From Methanomassiliicoccaceae archaeon (GTDB taxonomy: Archaea > Thermoplasmatota > Thermoplasmata > Methanomassiliicoccales > UBA472), in assembly GCA_963768775.1 (NCBI GenBank), contig CAVYIY010000005.1, positions 159,028-223,027 on the forward strand: 64,000 nucleotides of DNA, given 5' to 3'. How positions within the stretch are numbered: position 1 is the first letter of the stretch; each line of letters starts with the position of its first letter. The notes below the pieces were generated by a model, which ran no database searches, was not told the origin of the DNA, and was given only the letters and a program-made list of their open reading frames with translations. A program made the position numbers and the translations under genes. Positions 8,274-31,191 of the stretch are shown here, piece by piece.

Positions 8274-8557
8274 GAGCGCACCATTATCTCCCCGACCTTG
8301 ACTAGAAGTTGACCTTTGGGGATTGTGATGGGCACCAGAGCGCGCCCTTTCTTCAGGTGCCATTCGCCTGGGTAGGACTTCTCCTCTTCCAGAGTGAATT
8401 CGATGCCGAGCTTCGTCAGAGCCTTGGACAGCATTTCCAGGCTGGGGTCGGGCACGGCGAGCTTCTTGCTGACCTTGCGGCCTTGGGCTCGGGTGAGATT
8501 GGTATCAAAATACTCAGGCCAGAGCACCCAAGACTTCTCAGTGTCCATTTCGATCAC
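8261..8557 (-). CDS. srp19: Signal recognition particle protein SRP19
   Basis: 98-aa ORF. WVLWPEYFDTNLTRAQGRKVSKKLAV is the typical SRP19 N-terminus. Confidence 0.8.
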   Translation of the reverse strand: MIEMDTEKSWVLWPEYFDTNLTRAQGRKVSKKLAVPDPSLEMLSKALTKLGIEFTLEEEKSYPGEWHLKKGRALVPITIPKGQLLVKVGEIMVRSQRS

Positions 8558-8590
8558 CGAGTTACGGGTTTAGCGGGTGGGCGAAGTCGC

Positions 8591-8972
8591 TCACTTCACC
8601 AATACCGCGTTGATCGCTCCATCTTGGCCCGGTCTGGAGGTCACCTTTGCCATGCCGAGATCGGTCTGGATAATGGCGCCCTTGTTGATGATGTTGCGCT
8701 GCACGTAGTTTGAGTTGGCCGAGTTCTCCTTGACGGTGACGATCTTGACCTTCTGGGTCTTCTTGGTCGTCGGGTCCATCACGTTGGCGTAGATGGCCTT
8801 CAAGCATCCTGACCTTGGAGTTGCCACCGCGAACGCGGTACTTCTGCAGTCGGGTCTCGCCCAGATATGTGTATTGAGCGTCCCGGCCGATCTCGAAGCG
8901 ACGCTTCTTTCTTGATAGGCGCAGCCTTCCGCCCGAAGGCTTGCGTCGTGATTTGCCCTGCCACAATGACAT
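8591..8972 (-). pseudogene. rps8e: 30S ribosomal protein S8e with one frameshift near 8799-8806
   Basis: The N-terminal part [57 protein letters not shown] lies in the frame of ORF 8562..8972. The C-terminal part [69 protein letters not shown] lies in the frame of ORF 8591..8827. Confidence 0.85.
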
Positions 8973-9081
8973 AGTTATCCTCTTGGCAAAAATGGAGCAT
9001 GGTATAAATATGTTTCCGACAGCGGGTTATGTTCTGTCTTGGGGGAAAGGCTTATGAGTGTGCTTTTCATTTGCCTCACAT

Positions 9082-9618
9082 ATGGATTGGACGATTCTCT
9101 TAGAGATTCTATTGCCTTTAGGGATAGTAGGGGTGGCGTTCGTGGTTAGAAGTCACCCAAGAATTGATGTAAAGCTAGAATCCGAAAAGCTCGAAGGATT
9201 CGAGCATCTGCACTCCCTGAATCGGAAGATATTGCATCTCAAACGGCTGAAGGGCTCTGAAGTAGCCAACCCTCGAATCTACATCTATGTAAAAACGAAA
9301 GAGGACATTTCAAGCTACCATATTAGTGAATTTATCCATGATGACATAGAGGGAAATATCGGGACGGGATTGGATATTGCTATACCATTTCCAGTAGATT
9401 TAATCACAAATGCAGAACAAATCGCAATAGCCTATCATTATTCCAATGCCTATTTTCCGTGGAGGTCAAGAACCGTTGCGATTTACCGATTGGGAGAGAG
9501 GAATGGATTGTTGAAAGAGCGAACAAGTTACCACCAGTTTCTTGGTTTCCGTTCACAAGGCATTATAGAGAAAGAGATGAAACGGAGAAGAATCCAATGG
9601 CTGAACACATCGAAATAA
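9082..9618 (+). CDS. Hypothetical membrane-anchored protein in a low-GC patch
   Basis: This is ORF 9058..9618 with an ATG at 9082 (MDWTILLEILLPLGIVGVAFVV is a TM helix). The last 22 nt overlap the transposase start. I recognise no homology. Confidence 0.35.
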   Translation: MDWTILLEILLPLGIVGVAFVVRSHPRIDVKLESEKLEGFEHLHSLNRKILHLKRLKGSEVANPRIYIYVKTKEDISSYHISEFIHDDIEGNIGTGLDIAIPFPVDLITNAEQIAIAYHYSNAYFPWRSRTVAIYRLGERNGLLKERTSYHQFLGFRSQGIIEKEMKRRRIQWLNTSK

Positions 9619-10529
9619 CAACCACGGAGCGCACAATCGCCTGCCGTCATTGCGGTTCAACGGATGTCAGCAAGGATGGCAAATACAAGGATGCACAGTA
9701 CTACATTTGCAAAGATTGCGAGAGCAAATTCTCAGGTAAGGATTGCTATCCCAAGATGAAATACCCCAAAGAGGCCAATGTCAGAGCATTGACTTACTAC
9801 TACAATGGAATGTCGTACAAGGCTATCAATCACACGCTCAGCGACATAAGCAAGATATCGCCGAGCAAATCAACAATATGGAATTGGGTGATTAAGTACT
9901 CCAAACTGACCAACCGATATGTTCTCACACTGAAACCCCATCTATCGGACAAATGGATTGCTGATGAGACGGTAATAGACATCTGGGGTGAGCATTACTG
10001 GTTCTGGGACATAATAGACACTGAAACCAGATTCCTCATCGCATCTCACCTTTCAAGAACACGGACTGAGAGAGATGCGACTAAACTATTCCAAATGGCA
10101 AAGTTGCGGAGCAAATACAGACCTGCCATAATTATCACGGATAAATTGGGGCAGTACAACAAGGCATTCAGAAAAGTGTTTTATTCGAGTACACCAAGCC
10201 ATAAGGCATTCCATCTGACCTCAGAGGGATTCCAATCGCCTACGAATACCAATCTCATAGAGAGGTTCCACGGTACACTCAAACAACGGACGAAAGTTAT
10301 GAGAGACTTGAAAGAAAAAAATAGTGCCAGGATTGTTCTCGATGGCTATGTCACGCATTACAACTTCTTCATGGAGCATCAATATCTGGAAGGATTAACC
10401 CCTGCCGTGGCGGGTGGCATAGGCGGGGATTTGCATAATTGGGGAGACATGATAGACCAGGCTCTCAATGCACCCATTGAGAACCCCCAAATAACTCTCG
10501 AATGGGAGGAAGAATATCGTGTGGAATGA
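9597..10529 (+). CDS. IS6-family DDE transposase with an N-terminal zinc ribbon
   Basis: The ATG is at 9597. The zinc ribbon is CRHCGS...CKDCES. The IS6-type core is WIADETVIDIWGEHYWFWDIIDTETRFL...IITDKLGQYNKAF...NTNLIERFHGTLKQRTKVM. Confidence 0.8.
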   Translation: MAEHIEITTTERTIACRHCGSTDVSKDGKYKDAQYYICKDCESKFSGKDCYPKMKYPKEANVRALTYYYNGMSYKAINHTLSDISKISPSKSTIWNWVIKYSKLTNRYVLTLKPHLSDKWIADETVIDIWGEHYWFWDIIDTETRFLIASHLSRTRTERDATKLFQMAKLRSKYRPAIIITDKLGQYNKAFRKVFYSSTPSHKAFHLTSEGFQSPTNTNLIERFHGTLKQRTKVMRDLKEKNSARIVLDGYVTHYNFFMEHQYLEGLTPAVAGGIGGDLHNWGDMIDQALNAPIENPQITLEWEEEYRVE

Positions 10530-19913: not shown

Positions 19914-21524
19914 CTAGGCCTGGTACTTGCGCCTGATGGCGGCTCGGACCAGCCCGTAGTGCAGCGGGCTCGGCTTCTGCGGTCTCGACTTGAACTCGGG
20001 GTGGAACTGCGCGGCCATGAAGAAGGGATGCCCTTCCAGCTCCCCGATCTCCATCTTGATCCCGTCCGGGGAGCGTGCCGAGAACTTCCAACCGACCGAT
20101 TCCAGCTTCTCGATGAACTTCGGGTTCACCTCGTAACGGTGGCGATGCCGTTCCATGATCAGGGTCTTGCCGCCGTACAGCTCATGCGCCATCGTGCCCT
20201 CGGTGACCACCGACGGCTGGACTCCAAGGCGCATGGTCCCGCCCTTCCTCTTCACATCGCGCTGCTCCGGCAGGATGTCGATCACCGGGTATTGAGTCTC
20301 CGGGTTGATCTCCGTGCTGTTGGCGCCCTCCATGCCCAGCAAGGCGCGGGCGATGTCGATGGTGGCGATCTGGAAGCCGAGGCAGCAGCCGAGATACGGA
20401 ATGCGGTTCTCCCGGGCGAACCGGGAGGTCATGATCTTGCCCTCTATCCCCCGAGAACCGAAGCCTCCGGGTATGAGGATGCCGTCGATCTTGGCCAGGT
20501 CGGGGGTTATGCCCTTCTCCTGCACCACCTCGCTGTCCACGAACACCATCTCCACCTTGGTCTCGAGCTCCGCCCCAGCGTGGTGGAAAGCCTCCAAATG
20601 GCTTATGTAGGCGTCGGCCAGGTGGGTGTACTTGCCCACGCAGGCGATGCGCACCGTCCTGGTGGGATTGGAGACCCGGTCGAGGAACCTCTTCCATTCT
20701 GTGAGGTCCTGCATCTTCGACTCCAGCCTGAATCGCTTCAGGATGTAGTCGGTCAGGCCCTGCTCCTCCAAGATGATCGGGACTTCATAGATGGACCTGG
20801 CATCCGGGGCGGAAACCACCGCCTCCAGCGGCACGTCGCAGAACAGCGATATCTTGCGCTTGATGCTGTATTCCAATGGCTCCGTAGCTCGGGCCACGAT
20901 AGCATCTGGCTGAATGCCCAATGAGCGCAGCTCCTTCACCGAGTGCTGCGTCGGCTTGGTCTTCTGCTCTCCCACGGTCCCCAATATGGGGACCAAAGTG
21001 GTGTGGACGAACATGCAGTTCTCGCCCTTCCCCAGCTCGGTGTTCATCTGCCTCACCGCTTCCAGGAAGGGCATCGACTCGATGTCACCCACCGTTCCCC
21101 CGAGCTCGACGATGCAAACGTCAGCCCCGGTCGCTTCGGCGACGGTGCGGATCTGGCATTTTATCTCATTGGTAATGTGGGGAATGATCTGTACGGTCTT
21201 GCCCAGATACTCGCCCATCCTCTCCTTCTCGATGACCGTCCGGTATATCTTGCCGGTGGTGATGTTGTGATCGCTGGTGAGATTGATGTCTAGGAATCGT
21301 TCGTAATTGCCCAGGTCGAGGTCCACCTCGCCCCCGTCATCCAGGACGAATACCTCTCCATGCTCGAATGGGTTCATGGTGCCCGCGTCGATGTTCAGGT
21401 ACGGATCCACCTTAATCGCAGTTACCTTCAAACCTCGCGATATGAGTAGCCGCCCTATCGAGGAGGAGGTTATTCCTTTGCCCAAGCCAGATATTACGCC
21501 ACCCGTGACAAAAATATATTTCAT
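19914..21524 (-). CDS. pyrG: CTP synthase
   Basis: The ATG is at 21524 ([24 protein letters not shown]). The glutaminase domain contains [12 protein letters not shown] and LGCCLGFQ. Confidence 0.95.
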
Positions 21525-21571
21525 CGTTTCCACGGGATTGCCAAATCCGTTTGTGCATATTTCAGTCTTTG

Positions 21572-21580
21572 CACGATGGC
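21572..21580. repeat. Left copy of the 9-bp target-site duplication CACGATGGC
   Basis: Identical 9-mer at 28695-28703. Each copy directly abuts a terminal inverted repeat. Confidence 0.7.
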
Positions 21581-21584
21581 GGCT

Positions 21585-21637
21585 TTGCACTCAAAGTCGT
21601 TCTTGCACCTAAAATCATAAGTTTGCACCTAAAGTCT
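21585..21637 (+). repeat. Three phased direct repeats of TTGCAC(C)TAAA(A/G)TC at the left transposon end
   Basis: The copies start at 21585 (TTGCACTCAAAGTCG), 21603 (TTGCACCTAAAATCA) and 21623 (TTGCACCTAAAGTCT). Spacing is 18 and 20 nt. Confidence 0.7.
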
Positions 21638-21640
21638 TGC

Positions 21641-21655
21641 TTAAGTCAGACTTAA
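21641..21655. promoter_or_regulatory. Perfect palindrome TTAAGTC-A-GACTTAA, a putative operator upstream of the wHTH gene
   Basis: 7-bp arms around one central base, about 50 nt upstream of the ATG at 21707. The half-site resembles the AAGTC end of the iteron. Confidence 0.4.
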
Positions 21656-21706
21656 GACAGCAAGATTCAAAAGGGGATGAATACATGACTATTATGGTTG
21701 CAGCCT

Positions 21707-23143
21707 ATGAAGTCGAGTTCGAGTATTACTGCGAATGTTATTTGGCCATCAGCTGGCTTTTCGACTATCAAGAAGATAACCATCGCGCTCGTTAGCGGAA
21801 GGACGGTTCGTTCAGACCTCGTTCATAAGGCGAGTGTTAGCAAAAGTGCAATGAATAATGCTTTACCTATAATGCGAAATCTGCAAATCGTTCAATCAGA
21901 AGGGTACAGAAAAACCTCCCTCAAGTTGACGGAGGATGGGGAAGAACTTGCAACAGCATTGAAGAACAACAACGAAGATGGATTGAATCTCATTGGAGAA
22001 AGATTGCTCAATAATTCCCCAGTCCTGAAATCGGCTAAATCAAGACTCGTTCAGAATCCGCAAATCAATTTGGAAATCCTTGGTCACCAATTGGCCGAGG
22101 AATTTGGAATGAGATGGGACCACTCAGGTACTTATAGAAATGTAGGCCAGCACTCAAAAAGTATTCTTATGAATTTTGGGGCAATCCCACGAACTGGTAT
22201 GAGATCTTCCAATGGAGGGTATATTGTGCCCAATAGGACCACATTGGTCCCATCGACATCAGCTGAAATGATTTTTGATTTCATTAAGAAACTTGACCGA
22301 GAACAGGCAAAGCCAATTGTGGGGAGTCTGGAACCAAGTTCAACAAAGACATATCGGTTAGGGCGATTCAAATCACTTATCGACCTCGACCTTGTCGAAT
22401 CACCATTGGGGGACAAATGTTTTCGCCTAACTGAAAGTGGATTGAGATTGAAGCGAGCAATCCAAAACGGGGAGGAATCACGAGTATTTGCTGAAATTAT
22501 CTTTGAATTTCAGCCCTCCAAGGAGGTAATTCTTATTCTTTCAAATGCTAAACAGACATTCAATTCTACTGAAATAGGCAACAATATCGCTGAATATAAT
22601 GGTGCGAATTGGGGAAAGGAGACAAGCAGACAAGAAGGATTGCGATTCCTTTCTTGGCTTAGAACAGCTGGAATTGCTCAACAAAATCATGAACCAGGCA
22701 AGTATCGAATAACGCTTGCCCCTGTTCTCTTTTCTGTTTCATATGTGTCAAAAGTTGTTCCTCCATTAGAAGTAAAGAAGATCGAAATGCCTGAACCTCC
22801 ATTGCAACTAATTGTGAAAGACCATTTCGTTATGGACGAAAGGGAAATGATTAAAGAATTGGATAGATTCCTCATAAAAGCAGGGGAAATACTCCATACG
22901 AACCCAAATGAAAGTGAAATTGGAGATTATTTCGCCGAAACAGGTAGAATATTAAATGCGATTGTTGAAATTGCTGAGAAAGAAAAGAAACAAGAATGGC
23001 TTGCGATTCATCTTCGAGACCTCACCGAGATCGTTTTAAGATTGAATAATTTGGAAATGCTCGAAGAAATGGTAACTTTCGCGTATCTATGGAAGAAGGT
23101 TTTAAAAGAGAATGATGATTATTATTCGAGAACACCGGGATAG
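21707..23143 (+). CDS. Hypothetical protein with several winged-helix-like DNA-binding modules
   Basis: ORF 21698..23143 with the first ATG at 21707. The segments RSDLVHKASVSKSAMNNALPIMRNLQIVQSEGYRKTSLKLTEDGEELA, RLGRFKSLIDLDLVESPLGDKCFRLTESGLRL and GLRFLSWLRTAGIAQQNHEPGKYRIT look wHTH-like. No family is recognised. Confidence 0.55.
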   Translation: MKSSSSITANVIWPSAGFSTIKKITIALVSGRTVRSDLVHKASVSKSAMNNALPIMRNLQIVQSEGYRKTSLKLTEDGEELATALKNNNEDGLNLIGERLLNNSPVLKSAKSRLVQNPQINLEILGHQLAEEFGMRWDHSGTYRNVGQHSKSILMNFGAIPRTGMRSSNGGYIVPNRTTLVPSTSAEMIFDFIKKLDREQAKPIVGSLEPSSTKTYRLGRFKSLIDLDLVESPLGDKCFRLTESGLRLKRAIQNGEESRVFAEIIFEFQPSKEVILILSNAKQTFNSTEIGNNIAEYNGANWGKETSRQEGLRFLSWLRTAGIAQQNHEPGKYRITLAPVLFSVSYVSKVVPPLEVKKIEMPEPPLQLIVKDHFVMDEREMIKELDRFLIKAGEILHTNPNESEIGDYFAETGRILNAIVEIAEKEKKQEWLAIHLRDLTEIVLRLNNLEMLEEMVTFAYLWKKVLKENDDYYSRTPG

Positions 23144-23208
23144 CGAAGATCGGTATCGCAGCCCTCTCATCGGTAGGCAGTTCGGGGGTTCAAATCCCCC
23201 TCCCGGTA
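23134..23208 (+). tRNA. tRNA-like sequence (central CAT, so Met/Ile2-type?) with a defective anticodon stem; a possible tRNA pseudogene
   Basis: The acceptor ACCGGGA/TCCCGGT, D arm GCGA-AGATCGGTA-TCGC and T arm GGGGG-TTCAAAT-CCCCC all pair perfectly. The anticodon arm GCCCTCTCATCGGTAGGC forms only 3 clean base pairs. Confidence 0.45.
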
Positions 23209-23576
23209 CCTCTTTCCTTCTTTATCCCAGTGTCTCGAACGTCCTTGGAGCTGCCACTTCGAAGTTGCAGCCACGAAGTCGAAAGCTCCCGGACTGTATA
23301 CACTCAGGAACTAATGTGTCTTAAAGGGTTTGCGCTCATTCCTTCTATTGATTCTTAGTCGAAGCTGATATGAATGAATGTTGATGGTGCAATCGATCAT
23401 TATGATGAATTCTACCTTCAAATAAAGGATTATTATGATCTATTGAAACAAAACTGTATTACAATGGCATTACACGAATCAAATCTAAATCACAGTTGTC
23501 GATTAGAAACACGATGAATCGTTCGAACGTCCTTTTAGAGTGTTAACGATAAATAGAAAATCGAGAAGTATGAAAG

Positions 23577-23591
23577 TTGTACCTAAAGTCG
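23577..23591 (+). repeat. Extra iteron copy TTGTACCTAAAGTCG upstream of the small zinc-ribbon gene
   Basis: Matches the TTGCACCTAAAGTC consensus at 13 of 14 positions and lies 62 nt upstream of the ATG at 23653. Confidence 0.4.
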
Positions 23592-23652
23592 GCTGTGGGT
23601 AGTTTCACTGTAATTGGCGATTTGAATAGCATCCTATGACCTTCAGCAGATT

Positions 23653-23802
23653 ATGTGGTTGAAACCAAAGAAGCGAGAAGTTCTAGTCCTGAGAATGGTT
23701 GGCAAATGCCCAGAATGCGGAGCGGCTTTGTGGTCTGGATCGCAGAAATGCGGAAGATGTGGAAAATTGATCGAAAATAGATTTCATTTGGCTGGCAAAT
23801 AA
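23653..23802 (+). CDS. Small zinc-ribbon protein (49 aa)
   Basis: Hand translation gives MWLKPKKREVLVLRMVGKCPECGAALWSGSQKCGRCGKLIENRFHLAGK, with the CPxCG...CGRCG motif. It is below the 60-aa cutoff of the ORF track. Confidence 0.4.
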   Translation: MWLKPKKREVLVLRMVGKCPECGAALWSGSQKCGRCGKLIENRFHLAGK

Positions 23803-24779
23803 GTCTCTATCGTTGGATTGGGGCGAATGCCCTTTCGAATCCTTTCAACCATCGAGTTCAACTCATCCCAGTATGAACAAACACTCATGATCTCTCTGAT
23901 TGCCAATTCATCAATCTCTCCTTTCTCGGTTGAAGGTAGTTGGATTTTGAAGTCCTTTAACTTCTCGTTGAAGCACTTACGGCCATACGAATACCTCCAC
24001 GTTTCACGATTCAGCATATATTGAATGAAGATGAGAGTGGATAGCATAATTGTCTTCTTGGGCAAACAGACGGCGACGTCATCCTTGGCCGCAAAGGTAT
24101 ATGGATGGTATTTCGTGAGAAGAGGCCACGATCCATTGTAGGCGATAGTCAGGCATTGAGAATAGGTCTTATTCTTGGGCACCTCAACGAAGCCAACTAT
24201 CCCATTGTTAATATTTCCGCAAGAAACTAAAGGCGTCTTACCTGGATGCAGCTCAGACGCATTATGGTAATCGCCCGAGTTCAAGTCGAAAATGGATTTT
24301 AGTGAGTGAAATTTGAATCGGCTTATTGATGGAGTAGCAGAGTTATTCTTCCTCTCTGGCAAAATATTGTGAATGTCAGTCAGCCTTATTTTTGAGAATT
24401 GCTCGATTGGAAGCTGAATCGCCTTCAGTCTTGTAGGGGTGAGTTTTCTTCCAAAAGAAAAGCGCCATCTTGAATTAGTAATAATACTGGCAATGAAAAA
24501 TAGCTTTTCAAGTTCGATCTTTTGCTTTGGAATAAGAACGGTGATGTCATCTGGCACAGTCGAAAAATCGACGGTCTGAACGAAGGCATATCCAGCAACT
24601 CTTTCGACCGTTATTGCTGGTGCTTTAAAGCTCGGAGTAGCCTTTACAAAGCCAGTAACTCCATTGTTTTCGGTCGTTGCAGAAATTAGAGGAGTAGGAC
24701 CAGCTTCAAAATCCTCGATATAGCCGCCTTTTCCCTTCTTTGGATAAAAAAGTTCATCAATCGTCGCCATGAAATTCAT
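23784..24779 (-). CDS. Restriction-modification specificity subunit with two TRD-like repeats (BcgI-B-like)
   Basis: 331 aa with an internal duplication: ...PLISATTENNGVTGFV...DDITVLIPKQKIELEKLFFIASIITNSRWRFSFGRKLTPTRLKAIQLPI is repeated as ...PLVSCGNINNGIVGFV...DDVAVCLPKKTIMLSTLIFIQYMLNRETWRYSYGRKCFNEKLKDFKIQLP. The start overlaps the upstream methylase gene by 23 nt. Confidence 0.65.
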   Translation of the reverse strand: MNFMATIDELFYPKKGKGGYIEDFEAGPTPLISATTENNGVTGFVKATPSFKAPAITVERVAGYAFVQTVDFSTVPDDITVLIPKQKIELEKLFFIASIITNSRWRFSFGRKLTPTRLKAIQLPIEQFSKIRLTDIHNILPERKNNSATPSISRFKFHSLKSIFDLNSGDYHNASELHPGKTPLVSCGNINNGIVGFVEVPKNKTYSQCLTIAYNGSWPLLTKYHPYTFAAKDDVAVCLPKKTIMLSTLIFIQYMLNRETWRYSYGRKCFNEKLKDFKIQLPSTEKGEIDELAIREIMSVCSYWDELNSMVERIRKGIRPNPTIETYLPAK

Positions 24780-26613
24780 CTTCCTTTGCGCCTCTGATTA
24801 GGAACGCGACGTTGTCCCTGATAAGACTCTCTGCATCGAGCCTGATCTTCTCGGATGTAACAGGCTCATCGTCGAGATAGGCTTCAGGGCACAATTCAAA
24901 CAGTTCATCCTCGTCATTTATCTCGATTGCCTTCTGCATTTGAGGTATATTTGGAACGCTAATGCTCGGGTCTACCAGATATGATGCCAATATAGGTTTG
25001 AGCGTCTCCAAATCATTTGGTTCGCTTGGATTGGGGAGTCTCTTGCCTTTCTTCAGTTTATACCCATCATGGGCCGCTCGGAGCCATAACACCTTTTGAT
25101 TGCCTTGTGGCACACCTTTTCTGATGAATACTCCTACAGTTATGACCCCCACTCCAGGTTGAAATAATTCTTGCGGAAAAGAAATCACGCATAATAGGCT
25201 ATTCTCTTTTACCAGCCTTTTCCTCCAGCTAAGGTAGCCTCCTTTTTTAATCATGCATGAATAGGGCAGGACTGAAAACAGTAACCCCTCATCTTGCATT
25301 TGTTTCAAAGCCTGCTCTACGAAGAGAAATTCCTTCTTGTCGGTCTTCTTCTTTGGAAATGGCGGATTCATTAAGACCCTGGTAATTGGAGGAACCCGCT
25401 TTTCGGTTTCTTCATTAAGGTATTCAGCTCCGACTACTCCGTTTTTTGAAGACAGATTGAGATATTTGCGGAAACAATTTCCTTCAATGATGTTGTTTTT
25501 GCCATCACCCCTGAAGATCATGTTGACTAACGCAAGAGCCACAATTGTATCCTGTTCTTCGATTCCGTACAAACCGACCTTTCTGAACTCTTGGAAATCT
25601 CGATCATTTGCTTTCTTCTTGACCTCGTCGAAAGCGGCTACCAGGAAGCCTCCAGTTCCACAGGTTGGGTCAAGAACGAGGTCATTGGCGTTGATGTTTG
25701 TGACCTCTGCGGCGAGACGAGTTACGTGGCGAGGCGTAAGGACAATCCCTATCTCCTTTGCCCCATTGCCATATTTCAGGAAGACCTCGTAAAATTTGCC
25801 GAGAACATCCTTTCCCGAACGCATTGCCGAATGGATGTTTAGTCCCAGCAGTTCCTGAGTGGTCTTAACAATTGCCGATTTTAGCTTTATGTGATTATCC
25901 TCACTTGATGGAAGGTCGATATGGATAAAGGGGGAGAATTCGGATTTATTCTCAGCTTTTAGCACAAGGTCTACTCGTTGATTAATTTGGCTAACGAGTT
26001 CTGGTGGACTTAGATTCAAATCGACATCGGGCTTCCGCGTCATGGCTAGAAGGATCGCAGAAATGAACTTCGCCCTTGCATCTTTATGAATGGCGTTTTC
26101 ATGAAGAATTCCATTGATCTCCTCAGCCGTTCTGAGAAAATCTTCTTCAGAAATCTCAATGTCCTTTATGTTGGCATCGTCGTTTTTTAGAACCTGCTCA
26201 ATCTCGGTAGCAGAGAGTAAGGCGGTGACTTCTGAGTTATTCTCAGTAATTATTTCCCAGGATCCATTCACCAAATACCTGCTCGTTGCAATATATCCTT
26301 CTTCATCATTGCCAGCAATGCCAGTGCAAAAATGTGCTTTTATGAATTTGCTATTATTGATGTCATCGCAATATCCTATGGCTTCCTTGATTGCTTTTTC
26401 GAGGAGAACGCGCTTACTTTTAGCTTCTATGACATAGAATTGGTTGTTTGAAATCTCAACGATGTTTTCAGGGACTCCGCCTTTGAGTTGCTCTTTCAGA
26501 TACCTGTTATTATTGCATTCGTTTTGTGTGAATATCTTCCCCTTCCAACCCTTTTTCGACCTCAGTTCCTTAAGGATATGAACGTAAGCATGAACTTCCG
26601 TGACCGAATTCAT
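24757..26613 (-). CDS. N6-adenine DNA methyltransferase fused to an N-terminal PD-(D/E)xK-like nuclease domain (Type IIB/IIG-like RM subunit, BcgI-A-like)
   Basis: 618 aa. MTase motif I is VLDPTCGTGGFLVAAF and motif IV is LMNPPFP. The N-terminal roughly 130 aa contain VPENIVEIS...FYVIEAKSK (E...ExK). No separate restriction endonuclease or HsdR gene is nearby. Confidence 0.75.
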   Translation of the reverse strand: MNSVTEVHAYVHILKELRSKKGWKGKIFTQNECNNNRYLKEQLKGGVPENIVEISNNQFYVIEAKSKRVLLEKAIKEAIGYCDDINNSKFIKAHFCTGIAGNDEEGYIATSRYLVNGSWEIITENNSEVTALLSATEIEQVLKNDDANIKDIEISEEDFLRTAEEINGILHENAIHKDARAKFISAILLAMTRKPDVDLNLSPPELVSQINQRVDLVLKAENKSEFSPFIHIDLPSSEDNHIKLKSAIVKTTQELLGLNIHSAMRSGKDVLGKFYEVFLKYGNGAKEIGIVLTPRHVTRLAAEVTNINANDLVLDPTCGTGGFLVAAFDEVKKKANDRDFQEFRKVGLYGIEEQDTIVALALVNMIFRGDGKNNIIEGNCFRKYLNLSSKNGVVGAEYLNEETEKRVPPITRVLMNPPFPKKKTDKKEFLFVEQALKQMQDEGLLFSVLPYSCMIKKGGYLSWRKRLVKENSLLCVISFPQELFQPGVGVITVGVFIRKGVPQGNQKVLWLRAAHDGYKLKKGKRLPNPSEPNDLETLKPILASYLVDPSISVPNIPQMQKAIEINDEDELFELCPEAYLDDEPVTSEKIRLDAESLIRDNVAFLIRGAKEDEFHGDD

Positions 26614-26765
26614 TTCTTATTCCCACCCTTCTTGATCCAATCACTTAATGCCTCTTCGCCCGCTTCCGACAAGTGGCCTTTCTTCATTCCCAGTCTATGT
26701 GACACTGCATCTCTGAACCCTTCATCCACATCATCGCTGACGACTAGGAGAATTTTTTTAGTCAA
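26610..26765 (-). CDS. Small ribbon-helix-helix-like protein, a putative R-M controller
   Basis: Hand translation gives (L)TKKILLVVSDDVDEGFRDAVSHRLGMKKGHLSEAGEEALSDWIKKGGNKK. The TGA overlaps the methylase ATG (ATGA). There is no ATG, so a TTG start at 26765 is assumed. Confidence 0.4.
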   Translation of the reverse strand: MTKKILLVVSDDVDEGFRDAVSHRLGMKKGHLSEAGEEALSDWIKKGGNKK

Positions 26766-26847
26766 GTAGACCAAATATATATGTGCATATCCAATTATAT
26801 AACTATCTAGTTATGATGATAATGTGATATATGAATATCATCTTACT

Positions 26848-27012
26848 TTAATCAGTTATTGATGACTTGGTTTTGCGTCTTGGACTATCCCAATACGGGC
26901 TTTTACATTTAGGGCAGACGCGCGGCTTAGGCGGTTCGGCAACGATCTGTTTCGGAGCCCATTTGTGCTTGCATCTAAGGCACTCGAATCCAGCCACCAT
27001 GATTCTAGGCAT
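26848..27012 (-). CDS. Small zinc-ribbon protein (54 aa)
   Basis: Hand translation gives MPRIMVAGFECLRCKHKWAPKQIVAEPPKPRVCPKCKSPYWDSPRRKTKSSITD (CxxC...CxxC). It is more plausible than the antisense track ORF 26867..27067. Confidence 0.5.
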   Translation of the reverse strand: MPRIMVAGFECLRCKHKWAPKQIVAEPPKPRVCPKCKSPYWDSPRRKTKSSITD

Positions 27013-27122
27013 GATGAATGAAGGTATGTACTCTATGATATATTATCTTTCGGTTGTCATTCGGTAGCCTGGTAGCAACCTTAATATATACCTAATGAGT
27101 ATATACCTATTAGGTAAGAAAT

Positions 27123-28373
27123 ATGGCACACCTTGAAAAGACAACAAGAGAAGATCGCGCCAAGCTTATCGCGCGTAAAGCAAACTCGATTAATGAAGTT
27201 AAACCAGGCATATTCGCAGTCAAATCGCAAAGCGGAATAGGCGTATATCGAGTCGAGAATAATCGGGGCTGGAAATGCAATTGCCCAGATCATGTTACCA
27301 GGGGAGTCGATTGCAAGCATATCCTTGCGACTAGATATTACCTTGAAGCGCAGCACGAAACGCCGGAAGGTGTCGTTACGGAGAAGATTAGGCTGACCTA
27401 CAATCAGGCTTGGTCAGCTTATAATTCAGCTCAGGAGGAAGAGGTAAGGCTCTTCGACAAGCTCCTGAGCGAATTGGTTGAGGGGATACCGGAGCCAGAA
27501 CAGGTGATGGGCCGTCCTCGATTGCCGCTCAATGAGCAGCTTTTCTGCTCAATCCAGAAAGTCTATTCCCAATTGTCCAGTCGTCGCGCCCATAGCCTCT
27601 TCAAGAACGCCAATGAGAGAGGGCAGATCGGCCATGCGCCCCACTTCAACGCGCCATCCAAGCTGTTCAATCGGCCTGAGATCACGCCAATCCTCCATGA
27701 GCTGATAAGGCTCTCCGCCATGCCAGTTGCCGACATCGAGACGGACTTCGCAATCGATTCGACCGGATTTAGGACAACGACGTTCAATGCATACCACGGA
27801 GAGAAGCACAACGTCAAGAGAAAGCAGAACTGGCTCAAGGCGCATATGTGCTGTGGAGTGAAGACCAACATTGTTACGAGCATTGAGGTAACAAATGAGT
27901 TTGGCGCGGATTCCGTCCAGTTCCAGCCCCTCCTTGCGAAGACGGCTGAGTCGTTCAAGATAAACGAGGTAAGCGCGGATATGGCCTATTCCTCACGCGC
28001 CAATTTGCAGGCCGTTGGCGACCTTGGAGGAGTCGCTTTCATCCCTTTCAAGAGCAACGTGAACGGTAAACCCACTGGTTCGCCTTTGTGGAAGAAGATG
28101 TACCACTTCTTCCAGTACCACAGGGAAGAGTTCGAGGCGCACTACCATAAGCGGAGCAACGTGGAATCCACAAACGCGGCCATTAAGCGGAAGTTTGGGG
28201 AGACGCTGAAATCGAAGAACCTGATTGCTCAAACTAACGAACTATTGGCTAAGATCGTGGCCTATAACCTCACGGTGATAATCCACGAGATGTATGAGAA
28301 TGGGGTGGAGCCGGACTTCCTGCACATACATCCTAATCCGGGCAACGACGCCTTAAGCGCGGATGCATCATAA
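27123..28373 (+). CDS. IS4-family DDE transposase with an N-terminal SWIM zinc finger
   Basis: 416 aa. The SWIM motif CxCx(n)CxH is WKCNCPDHVTRGVDCKH. The DDE context is FAIDSTGF and VSADMAYSS. There is an exact IS4 YREK signature Y-(2)-R-(3)-E-(6)-K in HYHKRSNVESTNAAIKRKFGE. Confidence 0.8.
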   Translation: MAHLEKTTREDRAKLIARKANSINEVKPGIFAVKSQSGIGVYRVENNRGWKCNCPDHVTRGVDCKHILATRYYLEAQHETPEGVVTEKIRLTYNQAWSAYNSAQEEEVRLFDKLLSELVEGIPEPEQVMGRPRLPLNEQLFCSIQKVYSQLSSRRAHSLFKNANERGQIGHAPHFNAPSKLFNRPEITPILHELIRLSAMPVADIETDFAIDSTGFRTTTFNAYHGEKHNVKRKQNWLKAHMCCGVKTNIVTSIEVTNEFGADSVQFQPLLAKTAESFKINEVSADMAYSSRANLQAVGDLGGVAFIPFKSNVNGKPTGSPLWKKMYHFFQYHREEFEAHYHKRSNVESTNAAIKRKFGETLKSKNLIAQTNELLAKIVAYNLTVIIHEMYENGVEPDFLHIHPNPGNDALSADAS

Positions 28374-28394
28374 ATAGGACGAAATAACACAACA

Positions 28395-28556
28395 TTACTT
28401 GGACATCGCGTCTTTCCATTGTTCCATCCATTTCCTATATGCCCATCTATGCAATTTGCATGCATTACGTTTTGGAATGCTGTGCGCATGAGGACATACT
28501 TCGTCGTCGGTGATCTCCAACTCTCCTTTCTTTAAAGATTCCACGAACCATGACAT
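28395..28556 (-). CDS. Small Cys/His-containing protein (53 aa)
   Basis: Hand translation gives MSWFVESLKKGELEITDDEVCPHAHSIPKRNACKLHRWAYRKWMEQWKDAMSK. It lies inside the transposon and is below the ORF-track cutoff. Confidence 0.35.
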   Translation of the reverse strand: MSWFVESLKKGELEITDDEVCPHAHSIPKRNACKLHRWAYRKWMEQWKDAMSK

Positions 28557-28630
28557 CTTTTTTCGCCTTCTTTGTTCAATAGAAGCTTTTGAGGCTTACA
28601 ACAACCTTCCGGGGTGATTCTCAATATCGG

Positions 28631-28665
28631 TTGCACCTAATGTCCATATTCCGCACCTAATGTCC
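28631..28665 (+). repeat. Two phased direct repeats of (TT/CC)GCACCTAATGTCC at the right transposon end
   Basis: The copies are at 28631-28645 and 28651-28665, an exact 13-nt repeat with a 20-nt period. IR-R (28676-28694) carries a related copy in the opposite orientation. Confidence 0.65.
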
Positions 28666-28694
28666 TCGTTCATGGTCACTTTAGATGCAAAGCC

Positions 28695-28703
28695 CACGAT
28701 GGC
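28695..28703. repeat. Right copy of the 9-bp target-site duplication CACGATGGC
   Basis: Identical to 21572-21580. Confidence 0.7.
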
Positions 28704-28897
28704 CAGAAGAGTACGTTGAGGCGCTCGTTGGCAAAGCGACTGCTAGTCTCGCGATTCTTCTGCTCCCTTTCTCGTGCAGACGAGCTGAGAAGAGGGGAAA
28801 GAAAAAAACTTAGATGGCGCTCGATGCAAACCTTTGGTGCTTGATGTCCTGCCAAGGAATTGGTGGGGAGGCAACGAATGCCTCCCCTTGGTCACGT

Positions 28898-30366
<1,469 letters not shown>

Positions 30367-31086: not shown

Positions 31087-31191
31087 GCGGAGGTGGCCCA
31101 GCCAGGCAAGGCGTTGGATTGCTATCTCGCCCTAGCGGGGCAAACATCCAATGTCCGTGAGGACTCGGGGGTTCAAATCCCCCCCTTCGCG
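31087..31191 (+). tRNA. tRNA-Ser (anticodon GCU) with a 21-nt intron at the canonical 37/38 position
   Basis: The acceptor is GCGGAGG/CCTTCGC. The anticodon stem is TTGGA/TCCAA and the loop is TT-GCT-A. The intron spans 31125-31145. There is a 15-nt variable arm (class II) and the T arm is GGGGG-TTCAAAT-CCCCC. Confidence 0.85.

Follow-up and report, generated by a model that had tools for sequence, protein, structure and literature searches.

Between pyrG and the 16S rRNA gene of a Methanomassiliicoccaceae archaeon (GenBank assembly GCA_963768775.1) lies a segment of 7,114 bp, positions 21581-28694 of the window, by which we mean the whole 64-kb stretch of contig CAVYIY010000005.1 analyzed here. 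We interpret this segment, with a probability of roughly 90%, as one autonomous, non-composite cargo transposon from an archaeal lineage of the insertion sequence (IS) family IS5, of the IS903 type. An earlier note, made from the DNA sequence without database searches, had proposed a 7.1-kb unit that moved as a whole and left a 9-bp target duplication. That central claim stands, carried by the insertion scar, by empty sites at the level of the genus, and by 26 relatives built in the same way; the assignment of its transposase to the IS4 family does not. Nor is the element a one-off. It belongs to a large family whose members as a rule carry cargo, and which appears to be a widespread and undescribed family of archaeal transposons, every complete copy found carrying extra genes.

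The insertion scar and the boundaries of the element

The 9-bp direct repeat CACGATGGC is present at both 21572-21580 and 28695-28703, and immediately inside it are inverted ends that open with GGCTTTGCA, at 21581 and 28694. The left inverted repeat (IRL; 21581-21599) is GGCTTTGCACTCAAAGTCG, and its right counterpart (IRR; 28676-28694), read in reverse complement, is GGCTTTGCATCTAAAGTGA; the two share the first 9 of 9 bases and 14 of 19 in total. Direct reading of the letters agrees with everything that the earlier note had stated about the repeats, both inverted repeats, their coordinates and the extent of their match. The end pattern GGCTTTGCAYYYAAAGT, with up to two mismatches allowed, has two sites only in the window, where shuffled sequences give an expectation of 0.06. 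We also applied a detection rule in which a perfect 9-bp direct repeat must abut termini matching at 8 or more of 9 positions and bracket a transposase gene; of 300 block-shuffled copies of the region, 1 satisfied it. The scar is genuine, and chance is an unlikely source of it.

A single pair of inverted repeats encloses the transposase gene together with the passenger genes, and a single duplication flanks the entire unit. With one transposase gene and no second IS within 21581-28694, the unit is not a composite transposon. The low G+C content noted previously is also evident, the element as a whole being at 0.437, its cargo at 0.421 and its transposase gene at 0.512, compared with 0.594 for pyrG. 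The flanking genes are pyrG and the 16S rRNA gene, as reported, both on the minus strand. Two Logan contigs (run ERR12035932) are 100% identical to window positions 21249-26143 and 27089-28832 and reproduce both junctions; this run is possibly the source of the genome assembly itself, and the agreement is perhaps not independent.

Three same-genus metagenome-assembled genomes (MAGs), whose 16S rRNA genes are 96.9-97.3% identical to that of the window, lack an insert: the 16S rRNA gene stops about 200 nt before pyrG, which has the same orientation. A fourth MAG has the same 16S-pyrG arrangement, but its 16S rRNA gene aligns at only 76%. When 21581-28703 is subtracted from the window, what remains is a 250-nt spacer that is collinear with the same-genus empty loci.

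The transposase and its family assignment

The transposase open reading frame (ORF; 27123-28373) reads YHKRSNVESTNAAIK, as in the earlier note. It matches Pfam DDE_Tnp_1, and its best NCBIfam model is NF033579 ('IS5_2'), at 124 bits. As a reference we used IS903B, taken from plasmid Rts1 and located through its published inverted repeat; because its transposase matches NF033579 at 356 bits, this model can be taken to represent the IS903 type. Two relatives of the window element, L160 and L002, score 154 and 141 bits, above the model's cut-off of 140. BLASTP aligns the window transposase with that of IS903B at an E value of 4e-10 and 24% identity over the catalytic core, and the IDSTG, AD.AY and Y..R...E......K motifs align between them; the D-D and D-E spacings are 74 and 62 aa in the window transposase and 72 and 67 aa in IS903B. 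Another plasmid match (H5) was considered as a possible IS903 and dropped, because it proved to be unannotated DNA with an ISCR1 transposase gene on one side and armA on the other.

The earlier note had drawn its IS4 assignment from the spacing of the YREK motif. This Y(2)R(3)E(6)K spacing is indeed present (Y341, R344, E348, K355), but it does not discriminate: IS903B has the same spacing (YNRRSIAETAMYRVK), and for this reason it gives no indication of IS4. On the IS4 model NF033592 (IS4_1) the window transposase scores 25 bits, with a cut-off of 115. IS4-family elements have 5'-CA, 5'-CAT or 5'-CT termini and duplications of 7-13 bp according to subgroup (PMC2266710, Table 1); the 5'-GGCTTTGCA ends do not fit these termini, and only the length of the 9-bp duplication does. 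IS903B, in turn, has the inverted repeat GGCTTTGTTGAATAAATC and a 9-bp direct repeat (PMC10569121), and distant archaeal members of the family end in GGCTTTGTTTAATAAGTA, which has 15 of 18 positions as in the IS903B repeat. On the strength of the two profile scores and the GGCTTTG ends, we rejected the IS4 assignment. Judged by its sequence, the enzyme is predicted to be an IS5-family transposase of the IS903 type with an N-terminal SWIM zinc finger, and the D-E spacing together with the profile matches separates IS5 from IS4. The agreement between transposase and scar that the earlier note had seen nonetheless survives, because IS903 also makes 9-bp duplications: the scar fits the enzyme, although by way of IS903 and not of IS4.

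The transposase belongs to a very large group, with more than 5,800 clusters matching it at E <= 1e-10. The names of the homologues' sources include Methanomassiliicoccales, Methanothrix, Methanoregula and Pacearchaeota. Many of these homologues have a Pfam SWIM record, and the archaeal proteins are about 400-420 aa long. A search of the sequences of solved structures with the transposase returned nothing at E <= 1.

All of the related elements delimited carry additional genes

A metagenome scan with the transposase yielded 80 loci, in which the rule of a target-site duplication plus inverted repeats delimited 24 further distinct elements; the scan covers transposases that share peptide words with the query, on contigs long enough to hold both ends. 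Together with the window element, L002 and L012/L013 there are 27 delimited elements, ranging from 2,957 to 7,715 bp, and the transposases of the other 26 are 43-74% identical to that of the window. All 27 have perfect 9-bp duplications, each of a different sequence and with no obvious target consensus. Their termini are of the GGCTTTG type, with variation at a few ends (AGCTTTG, GGATTTG). None of the 27 is a bare IS, and in 35 other loci scanned, no left end was found within 700 nt upstream of the transposase gene. The earlier note had raised the scenario that other copies of this transposase are bounded by a much closer pair of inverted repeats; every one of the 27 is at least 2.96 kb long, and none has a proximal left end.

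Two relatives illustrate the range. L002, on a Methanothrix contig, is 2,957 bp long and runs from GGTCTGGCC-GGCTTTGCAGCTAAAGTCG… to …ACTTTAGATGCAAAGCC-GGTCTGGCC; within it are a gene of 248 aa, one for DUF488, a small ribbon-helix-helix (RHH) gene and a transposase gene whose product is 66% identical to that of the window. L012/L013, from a Methanomassiliicoccales MAG, is 7,334 bp long and flanked by TCATGGAGG, with a transposase that is 72% identical.

The same cargo unit at different sites was seen for two family members, L106 (1499-4613) and L109 (2428-5657), and not for the window copy. These are 94.8% identical over 2.4 kb that begin exactly at the left terminus and take in three cargo genes plus the transposase gene, but their flanks are unrelated, and they differ in their duplications and in the modules found to the right of the transposase gene. 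Because they match from the left terminus inward and differ in these other respects, cargo evidently travels with the ends, and modules are exchanged. A further element, E15 (L149; 7,065 bp), has a complete internal left-end triplet of repeats (1893-1945) and a transposase fragment (2031-2195), and yet a single 9-bp duplication flanks its outer ends, such that it is nested or compound; this structure indicates that the outer end of a second, decayed copy can be recruited, with capture of the DNA between.

We note two additional observations on the sampled contigs. The right end in L123 (4870-4979) is joined to the reverse-complemented left flank of a sibling sample (L124, 1-110), either because the element was inverted in place or because of an assembly artifact across the terminal inverted repeats. 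Two contigs with family members (L160/L181 and L115/L180) are listed in IMG/VR as viral, so viruses or other mobile replicons may carry some of these transposons.

Architecture of the element ends

A repeat of about 12 nt with the consensus GCACCTAAAGTC has seven matches in the window, all of them within the element. Three are at the left end and run in the same direction, with starts at +5, +23 and +43; at the right end, two are on the strand of the left copies (starts at -64 and -44) and one, at -15, is inverted inside the terminal inverted repeat. The additional end repeats at 21603, 21623, 28631 and 28651 had been overlooked in the earlier note. The remaining copy is a lone internal repeat at 23577-23590, which may be a vestige of an older left end.

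The same layout (+5/+23/+43 and -64/-44/-15) is kept in most of the first 20 delimited elements examined. The sequence of the repeat varies by lineage, with all six sites changing together, and includes the versions GCACCTAAAG, GCACGTAAAG, GCAACTAAAG, GCACTTTTA, GCTCCTTTT, TGTTTAAxAAG and GCACGAAAA. Because these changes are concerted and at fixed positions, we predict that the repeats are bound by a protein that evolves along with them, the transposase being the simplest candidate. In many relatives, the transposase gene runs at its 3' end into the -64 and -44 repeats. The window element has only a degenerate repeat there, inside the part encoding the transposase C terminus where many relatives have the -64 repeat, and about 300 bp, including the ORF for a 53-aa protein, separate it from the functional right end. 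A palindrome just before the transposase start codon has an ACCTAAT core in common with the end repeats and may be an operator (Table 1). The Logan contigs L182 and L001 break and overlap at this palindrome.

Alternative explanations

Several observations weigh against the cargo-transposon interpretation. The match between IRL and IRR is imperfect, although similar divergence between the two ends is seen in relatives. A single copy is visible, within the 64 kb of the genome that was examined. The score of the window transposase on NF033579 is just below the model's cut-off. Given the reach of the survey, the statement that the element is never bare is valid for the sample and not for the whole family. 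Finally, the empty site that the earlier note had suggested seeking is provided by the three same-genus MAGs but not at the strain level, where none was found, and a 24-mer spanning the reconstructed junction is unmatched in the JGI metagenomes; the insertion can consequently be dated only relative to organisms with 16S rRNA genes about 97% identical.

A two-step origin is the most substantial of the other possibilities that we considered, although it concerns the history of the element and is not an alternative to its being a transposon. A transposon with the restriction-modification (R-M) genes and the transposase gene, and with a left end at about 23.55 kb, would have recruited a left end farther out, capturing 2 kb with the gene for a 478-aa protein and a tRNA-like sequence, after which the last move was of the whole 7.1 kb. 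The lone internal end repeat (0.17 expected by chance) would be a remnant of the former end, but it is one of three repeats expected at 23.58 kb, there is no GGCTTTGCA terminus nearby, and a single match with one mismatch could itself be due to chance. That such events take place in the family is suggested by E15, with its internal left-end triplet inside an outer duplication, by the module exchange in L106 and L109, and by the recurrence of homologues of the 478-aa protein gene beside transposase genes. We regard a two-step build of the window element as unlikely, but with enough in its favor to be kept in mind.

It is highly improbable that the mobile unit is instead an IS of about 1.6 kb (about 27.05-28.69 kb), with the distant left inverted repeat and 9-mer being coincidental or belonging to a decayed copy, and the other 5.5 kb being host or island DNA. 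Such a unit would resemble the classical IS903-group elements, which are about 1 kb long with a single ORF, and the transposase gene does sit at the right edge of the segment. However, there is neither a GGCTTTG-type end nor a repeat cluster at 26.8-27.12 kb, a search for a closer left inverted repeat found none between 26.6 and 27.12 kb, and the 9-bp duplication exactly flanks the outer ends. Moreover, the interval is foreign in its G+C content and absent from the same-genus relatives, and no sign of a shorter form comes from the sizes of the 27 elements or, at the other loci scanned, from the 700 nt that precede the transposase gene.

We give almost no credence to integration of a plasmid, virus or island by site-specific recombination, with the 9-mers as attachment-site (att) cores, the repeats as iterons for the 478-aa protein and the transposase as a passenger: direct repeats spaced by 20 nt before a large winged-helix gene do resemble plasmid iterons, there is a tRNA-like sequence inside the block, and two related elements are on IMG/VR contigs, but the block has no integrase or recombinase gene, the flanking 9-mers differ in 27 of 27 elements and so show no att specificity, the repeat layout is present at both ends and also in elements lacking a homologue of the 478-aa protein, and the termini and duplication length are those of IS903.

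Genes carried by the window element

The features of the transposon and its flanks are listed in Table 1. The earlier note had described about 5.5 kb of cargo that includes a BcgI-like R-M pair, and this is borne out by domain, motif and PADLOC matches. The 618-aa subunit matches N6_Mtase (E 9e-33) and contains DPTCGTGGF and NPPF, both methylase motifs. Two PADLOC REase_MTase_IIG models, one of 637 aa (E 3e-42) and one of 614 aa (E 2e-41), also match it; residues P48-E49…E63-x-K65 of its nuclease-type motif are invariant across 4 homologues. In a search of solved structures, this subunit matched only Type I M subunits, over the methylase domain. Given the PE…ExK, DPTCGTGGF and NPPF motifs and the REase_MTase_IIG matches, the pair has a BcgI-like (Type IIB) architecture.

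Table 1. Features of the transposon and the genes beside it (window coordinates)
Feature	Position	Strand	Remarks
Host pyrG (CTP synthase)	19914..21524	-	ATG at 21524
Target-site duplication, left copy, CACGATGGC	21572..21580		Identical to 28695-28703; abuts IRL directly
Left end	21581..21636	+	Terminal inverted repeat GGCTTTGCACTCAAAGTCG contains repeat 1; repeats 2 (21603-21616) and 3 (21623-21636) are direct
Gene for 478-aa protein (481 aa from TTG at 21698)	21707..23143	+	Weak winged-helix match; nearly orphan
tRNA-like sequence	23134..23208	+	Acceptor, D and T arms intact; anticodon arm defective
Lone internal end repeat, TTGTACCTAAAGTC	23577..23590	+	In non-coding stretch; 0.17 expected by chance
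Zinc-ribbon ORF, 49 aa	23653..23802	+	Zn_ribbon matches weak, under Pfam cut-offs
R-M specificity subunit, 331 aa, two target-recognition domains	23784..24779	-	Methylase_S in 2 stretches; PADLOC Specificity_II (341-aa model), E 3e-23
Fused restriction-methylase subunit, 618 aa	24757..26613	-	N-terminal PE…ExK nuclease-type motif and gamma-class N6-adenine methylase
RHH protein gene, 54 aa	26610..26774	-	Weak RHH_6 match; end overlaps start of R-M gene
Zinc-ribbon protein gene, 54 aa	26848..27012	-	Divergent from transposase gene; conserved small-gene slot of the family
Palindrome TACCTAAT…ATTAGGTA (full: TACCTAATGAGTATATACCTATTAGGTA)	27086..27118		Just before transposase ATG; ACCTAAT core common to end repeats
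Transposase, 416 aa	27123..28373	+	N-terminal SWIM-type zinc finger (CNCPDH…CKH); IS5/IS903-type DDE domain (D212, D286, E348, K355)
Degenerate repeat, CTGCACATACATC	28320..28332	+	Inside transposase C terminus, where many relatives have the -64 repeat
Cys/His-containing ORF, 53 aa	28395..28556	-	In segment of about 300 bp between transposase gene and right-end repeats
Right end	28631..28694		Plus-strand repeats at 28631-28644 (-64) and 28651-28664 (-44); terminal inverted repeat 28676-28694
Target-site duplication, right copy, CACGATGGC	28695..28703		Identical to left copy
Host 16S rRNA gene, archaeal	28898..30366	-	3' end 194 nt from right duplication

The 478-aa protein has just 4 distant homologues among 5.8 billion clusters. 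Two of the four, being the two with usable context (L178 and L175), are encoded directly upstream of DDE transposase genes. In L178 (4190-7717) the neighboring transposase is of the window family (55% identity) and apparently frameshifted, and in L175 (8001-11223) it belongs to a different family; close by, each locus also has large R-M genes of the Type IIG or ISP-like kind. Around the homologues, where the sequence is very AT-rich, neither locus showed convincing termini.

The tRNA-like sequence overlaps the stop codon of the gene for the 478-aa protein. It matches the Rfam tRNA model at 46 bits (E 1.4e-7) in a local scan but is absent from the gathering-threshold scan of the whole window, and ARAGORN gives it a 4-base anticodon. 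It may represent a tRNA pseudogene that was captured, or what remains of an integration site.

The Methanothrix element L002 has, next to its transposase gene, a small gene whose product is 54% identical to the RHH protein. The Cys/His-containing 53-aa ORF had no family match, and no homologue among the other delimited elements.

A conserved backbone with variable cargo

At least 20 of the 27 elements have, 100-260 nt upstream of the transposase gene and divergent from it, a small gene for a DNA-binding protein of 50-80 aa. The small upstream ORFs were considered as one family, and this was rejected when alignment showed that not all are homologous, with no similarity between classes. Assigned by tblastn, the classes are zinc ribbon (6 elements, namely the window and five others with other cargo, in which homologues with 42-55% identity are at the same position), two of AbrB-like proteins (4 and 6 elements), winged helix (3 elements) and RHH (2 elements, which are L002 and the window, where it is in second position). 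Because each class occurs with different cargo, the small-gene slot belongs to the backbone, and the lack of homology among classes argues for the small protein acting as a regulator rather than as an obligatory cofactor of transposition.

Genes for R-M systems or DNA methylases are present in 13 of the 27 elements and are the most common class of cargo found. BcgI-like pairs are in the window element, L095 and L144; single-chain Type IIG-like fusions are in L105, L128, L148, L156 and L136. The other five have an N6_N4 methylase with a BglII-type nuclease (L151), an EcoRI-type methylase with a C5 methylase (L149), a C5 methylase with an HNH nuclease (L160), a D12-class methylase (L162), and two N6_N4 methylases, one with a faint match to an Mrr-type nuclease (Mrr_cat), along with other ORFs (L013). 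In L095, the restriction-methylase and specificity subunits are 46% and 39% identical to those of the window and the transposase is 71% identical, with the R-M pair in the opposite orientation. L110 (7733-9819) carries an AbrB-like gene followed by genes for a DarT ADP-ribosyltransferase (E 9e-40) and a macro-domain protein, which we predict to be a DarTG-type toxin-antitoxin or defense module. DUF488 is found in three elements. Also among the cargo are a ParB_N protein, a ClpP-like protease and numerous unknown genes.

Insertion site and host genes

The element is inserted 48-56 nt upstream of the pyrG ATG, at a point upstream of a conserved A/T-rich block before the gene. This block, which aligns with AATAAATA in the relatives, is retained between the insertion and the pyrG ATG, and is probably the TATA box. 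The nearest pyrG product among species-representative genomes is 78% identical in amino acid sequence, in Methanomassiliicoccales MAGs.

The longest pyrG ORF begins at a GTG in the left inverted repeat of the transposon (21590), 22 residues before the conserved start at ATG 21524. Automatic annotation could accordingly give a spurious pyrG N terminus that starts inside the transposon (21524-21590, minus strand). An exact-protein look-up of the window pyrG product, with both possible starts, found none recorded.

The 16S rRNA gene is not followed by a 23S rRNA gene; pyrG is directly next to it in the same orientation, an arrangement kept in the same-genus MAGs (L015, L016 and L017, at about 8330-10001) and consistent with unlinked rRNA genes in this group. 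Upstream of the 16S rRNA gene, a tRNA match of 105 nt (31087-31191, plus strand) is about 30 nt over the standard length and was reported by Rfam, whereas ARAGORN did not list it; its likely identity is an archaeal tRNA with an intron.

A plausible mechanism

For the cargo transposon as we interpret it, a plausible course of events can be proposed. The transposase would recognize the GGCTTTGCA termini together with the three repeats of about 12 nt at each end, and, if it follows the chemistry of IS903 and other DDE enzymes, would pair the ends, cut the 3' ends and join them to the target with a 9-bp stagger. Repair of the stagger would then yield the CACGATGGC duplication that is observed. The element entered the spacer of about 250 nt between the 16S rRNA gene and pyrG, where it lies upstream of what is likely the pyrG TATA box. 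Its backbone comprises the two ends, the transposase gene and the small divergent gene for a DNA-binding protein, with the zinc-ribbon gene here followed by the RHH gene. The zinc-ribbon and RHH proteins probably control the divergent promoter region. From the general biology of R-M systems, the R-M pair probably defends the host and stabilizes the element by post-segregational killing.

Implications

Cargo-carrying DNA transposons are central to bacterial gene flow and barely documented in archaea. Through a family such as this, genes could move within and between methanogen genomes by a simple route with a single transposase. Because about half of the elements carry R-M or methylase genes, and one a DarTG module, the family looks like a vehicle for defense and addiction modules among methanogenic archaea; such spread would include relatives of the gut-associated Methanomassiliicoccales. 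If the broader synthesis given below is correct, the family would fill a gap noted by Krupovic et al. (2019), who stated that no passenger-gene transposons had been detected in archaea (PMC6563490). In a 2026 census of archaeal IS elements, 'passenger' is unmatched and 'cargo' is in the reference list only (PMC13343696). We found no description of this archaeal family in the literature searched; ISfinder was outside the scope of the search, and prior cataloging under an IS name is possible.

A broader synthesis can be offered tentatively, and taken jointly we consider its parts somewhat doubtful. In this synthesis, an unnamed and widespread family, with Methanomassiliicoccales, Methanothrix, Methanoregula and DPANN-type hosts, would differ from classical IS elements in having three asymmetric sites at each end, as Mu and Tn7 do, in having a small DNA-binding protein that is needed for transposition or controls it, and in being a dedicated shuttle for R-M, DarTG and other defense or addiction modules. 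The combination of a SWIM finger on an IS903-type enzyme with three co-varying sites at each end would offer a direct handle on the evolution of end discrimination and of cargo capacity. Moreover, a natural archaeal transposon with ends of about 70 nt that tolerates at least 5.5 kb of cargo is a candidate genetic tool for methanogens.

Comparison with known systems

Casposons are one class of integrated elements in archaea (PMC6563490), and a 2025 preprint reports Tn7-family elements in archaea. Both are likewise archaeal DNA transposons with passengers, but they use Cas1, or TnsA/B/C with target selectors, and are site-specific or targeted, whereas the elements described here have a single IS5-type DDE transposase.

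That a transposon may carry an R-M system is a principle already well established in bacteria. Furuta, Abe and Kobayashi (2010) described bacterial transposon-like R-M units with inverted repeats and short duplications, among them a BcgI-like IIG+S unit of Neisseria gonorrhoeae with 26-bp inverted repeats and an 8-bp duplication; no archaeal R-M system survived the selection of that study (PMC2853133). The window element resembles these units in its Type IIG-like restriction-methylase and Type I-like specificity genes, imperfect inverted repeats, short duplication and relatives with an empty site. However, the bacterial units have no transposase and form no defined family, while the window unit is autonomous and part of a large one. 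The R-M pair itself shares with BcgI (Type IIB) a two-gene plan, with a subunit of about 620-640 aa that joins a nuclease motif to an N6-methylase, and a specificity subunit of about 330-340 aa with two recognition domains; this likeness is at the level of architecture, the PADLOC labels being only 'REase_MTase_IIG' and 'Specificity_II'.

In ISfinder terms, the element, a unit transposon, is a transporter IS (tIS; PMC9330008). Passengers are also found in the IS231 subgroup of the IS4 family, whose members reach 5.4 kb and have CAT… ends and duplications of 10-12 bp (PMC2266710). The archaeal elements share with tIS and IS231 a single transposase, one pair of inverted repeats, and passengers between the left inverted repeat and the transposase gene. 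IS231 differs in having an IS4 transposase and in being bacterial (Bacillus cereus group), and in the tIS and IS231 families cargo is reported in a fraction of members, compared with all 27 delimited archaeal elements.

The left-right asymmetry of the ends recalls the multi-site ends of Mu and Tn7, unlike the single 18-bp inverted repeat of IS903. In eukaryotes, PIF/Harbinger elements combine an IS5-related transposase with a second small DNA-binding protein, although we draw this as an analogy only; in the archaeal family, the small genes fall into at least five mutually dissimilar classes (zinc ribbon, two AbrB-like, winged helix and RHH).

Among named elements, the closest is IS903, from the IS903 group of the IS5 family. 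The likeness to IS903 and IS903B of the Enterobacteria comprises the match to NF033579, the aligned DDE and YREK residues, the GGCTTTG start and the 9-bp duplication. The compactness of the IS903 group, at about 1 kb with a single ORF for about 300 aa, is not a feature of the archaeal family: IS903 itself, at about 1 kb, has a simple 18-bp inverted repeat and a single ORF encoding 307-322 aa, whereas the archaeal elements span 2.96-7.7 kb and have several ORFs. They are further distinguished by a transposase of about 400-420 aa with a SWIM finger, three repeats at each end, a conserved second small gene, passenger genes and archaeal hosts.

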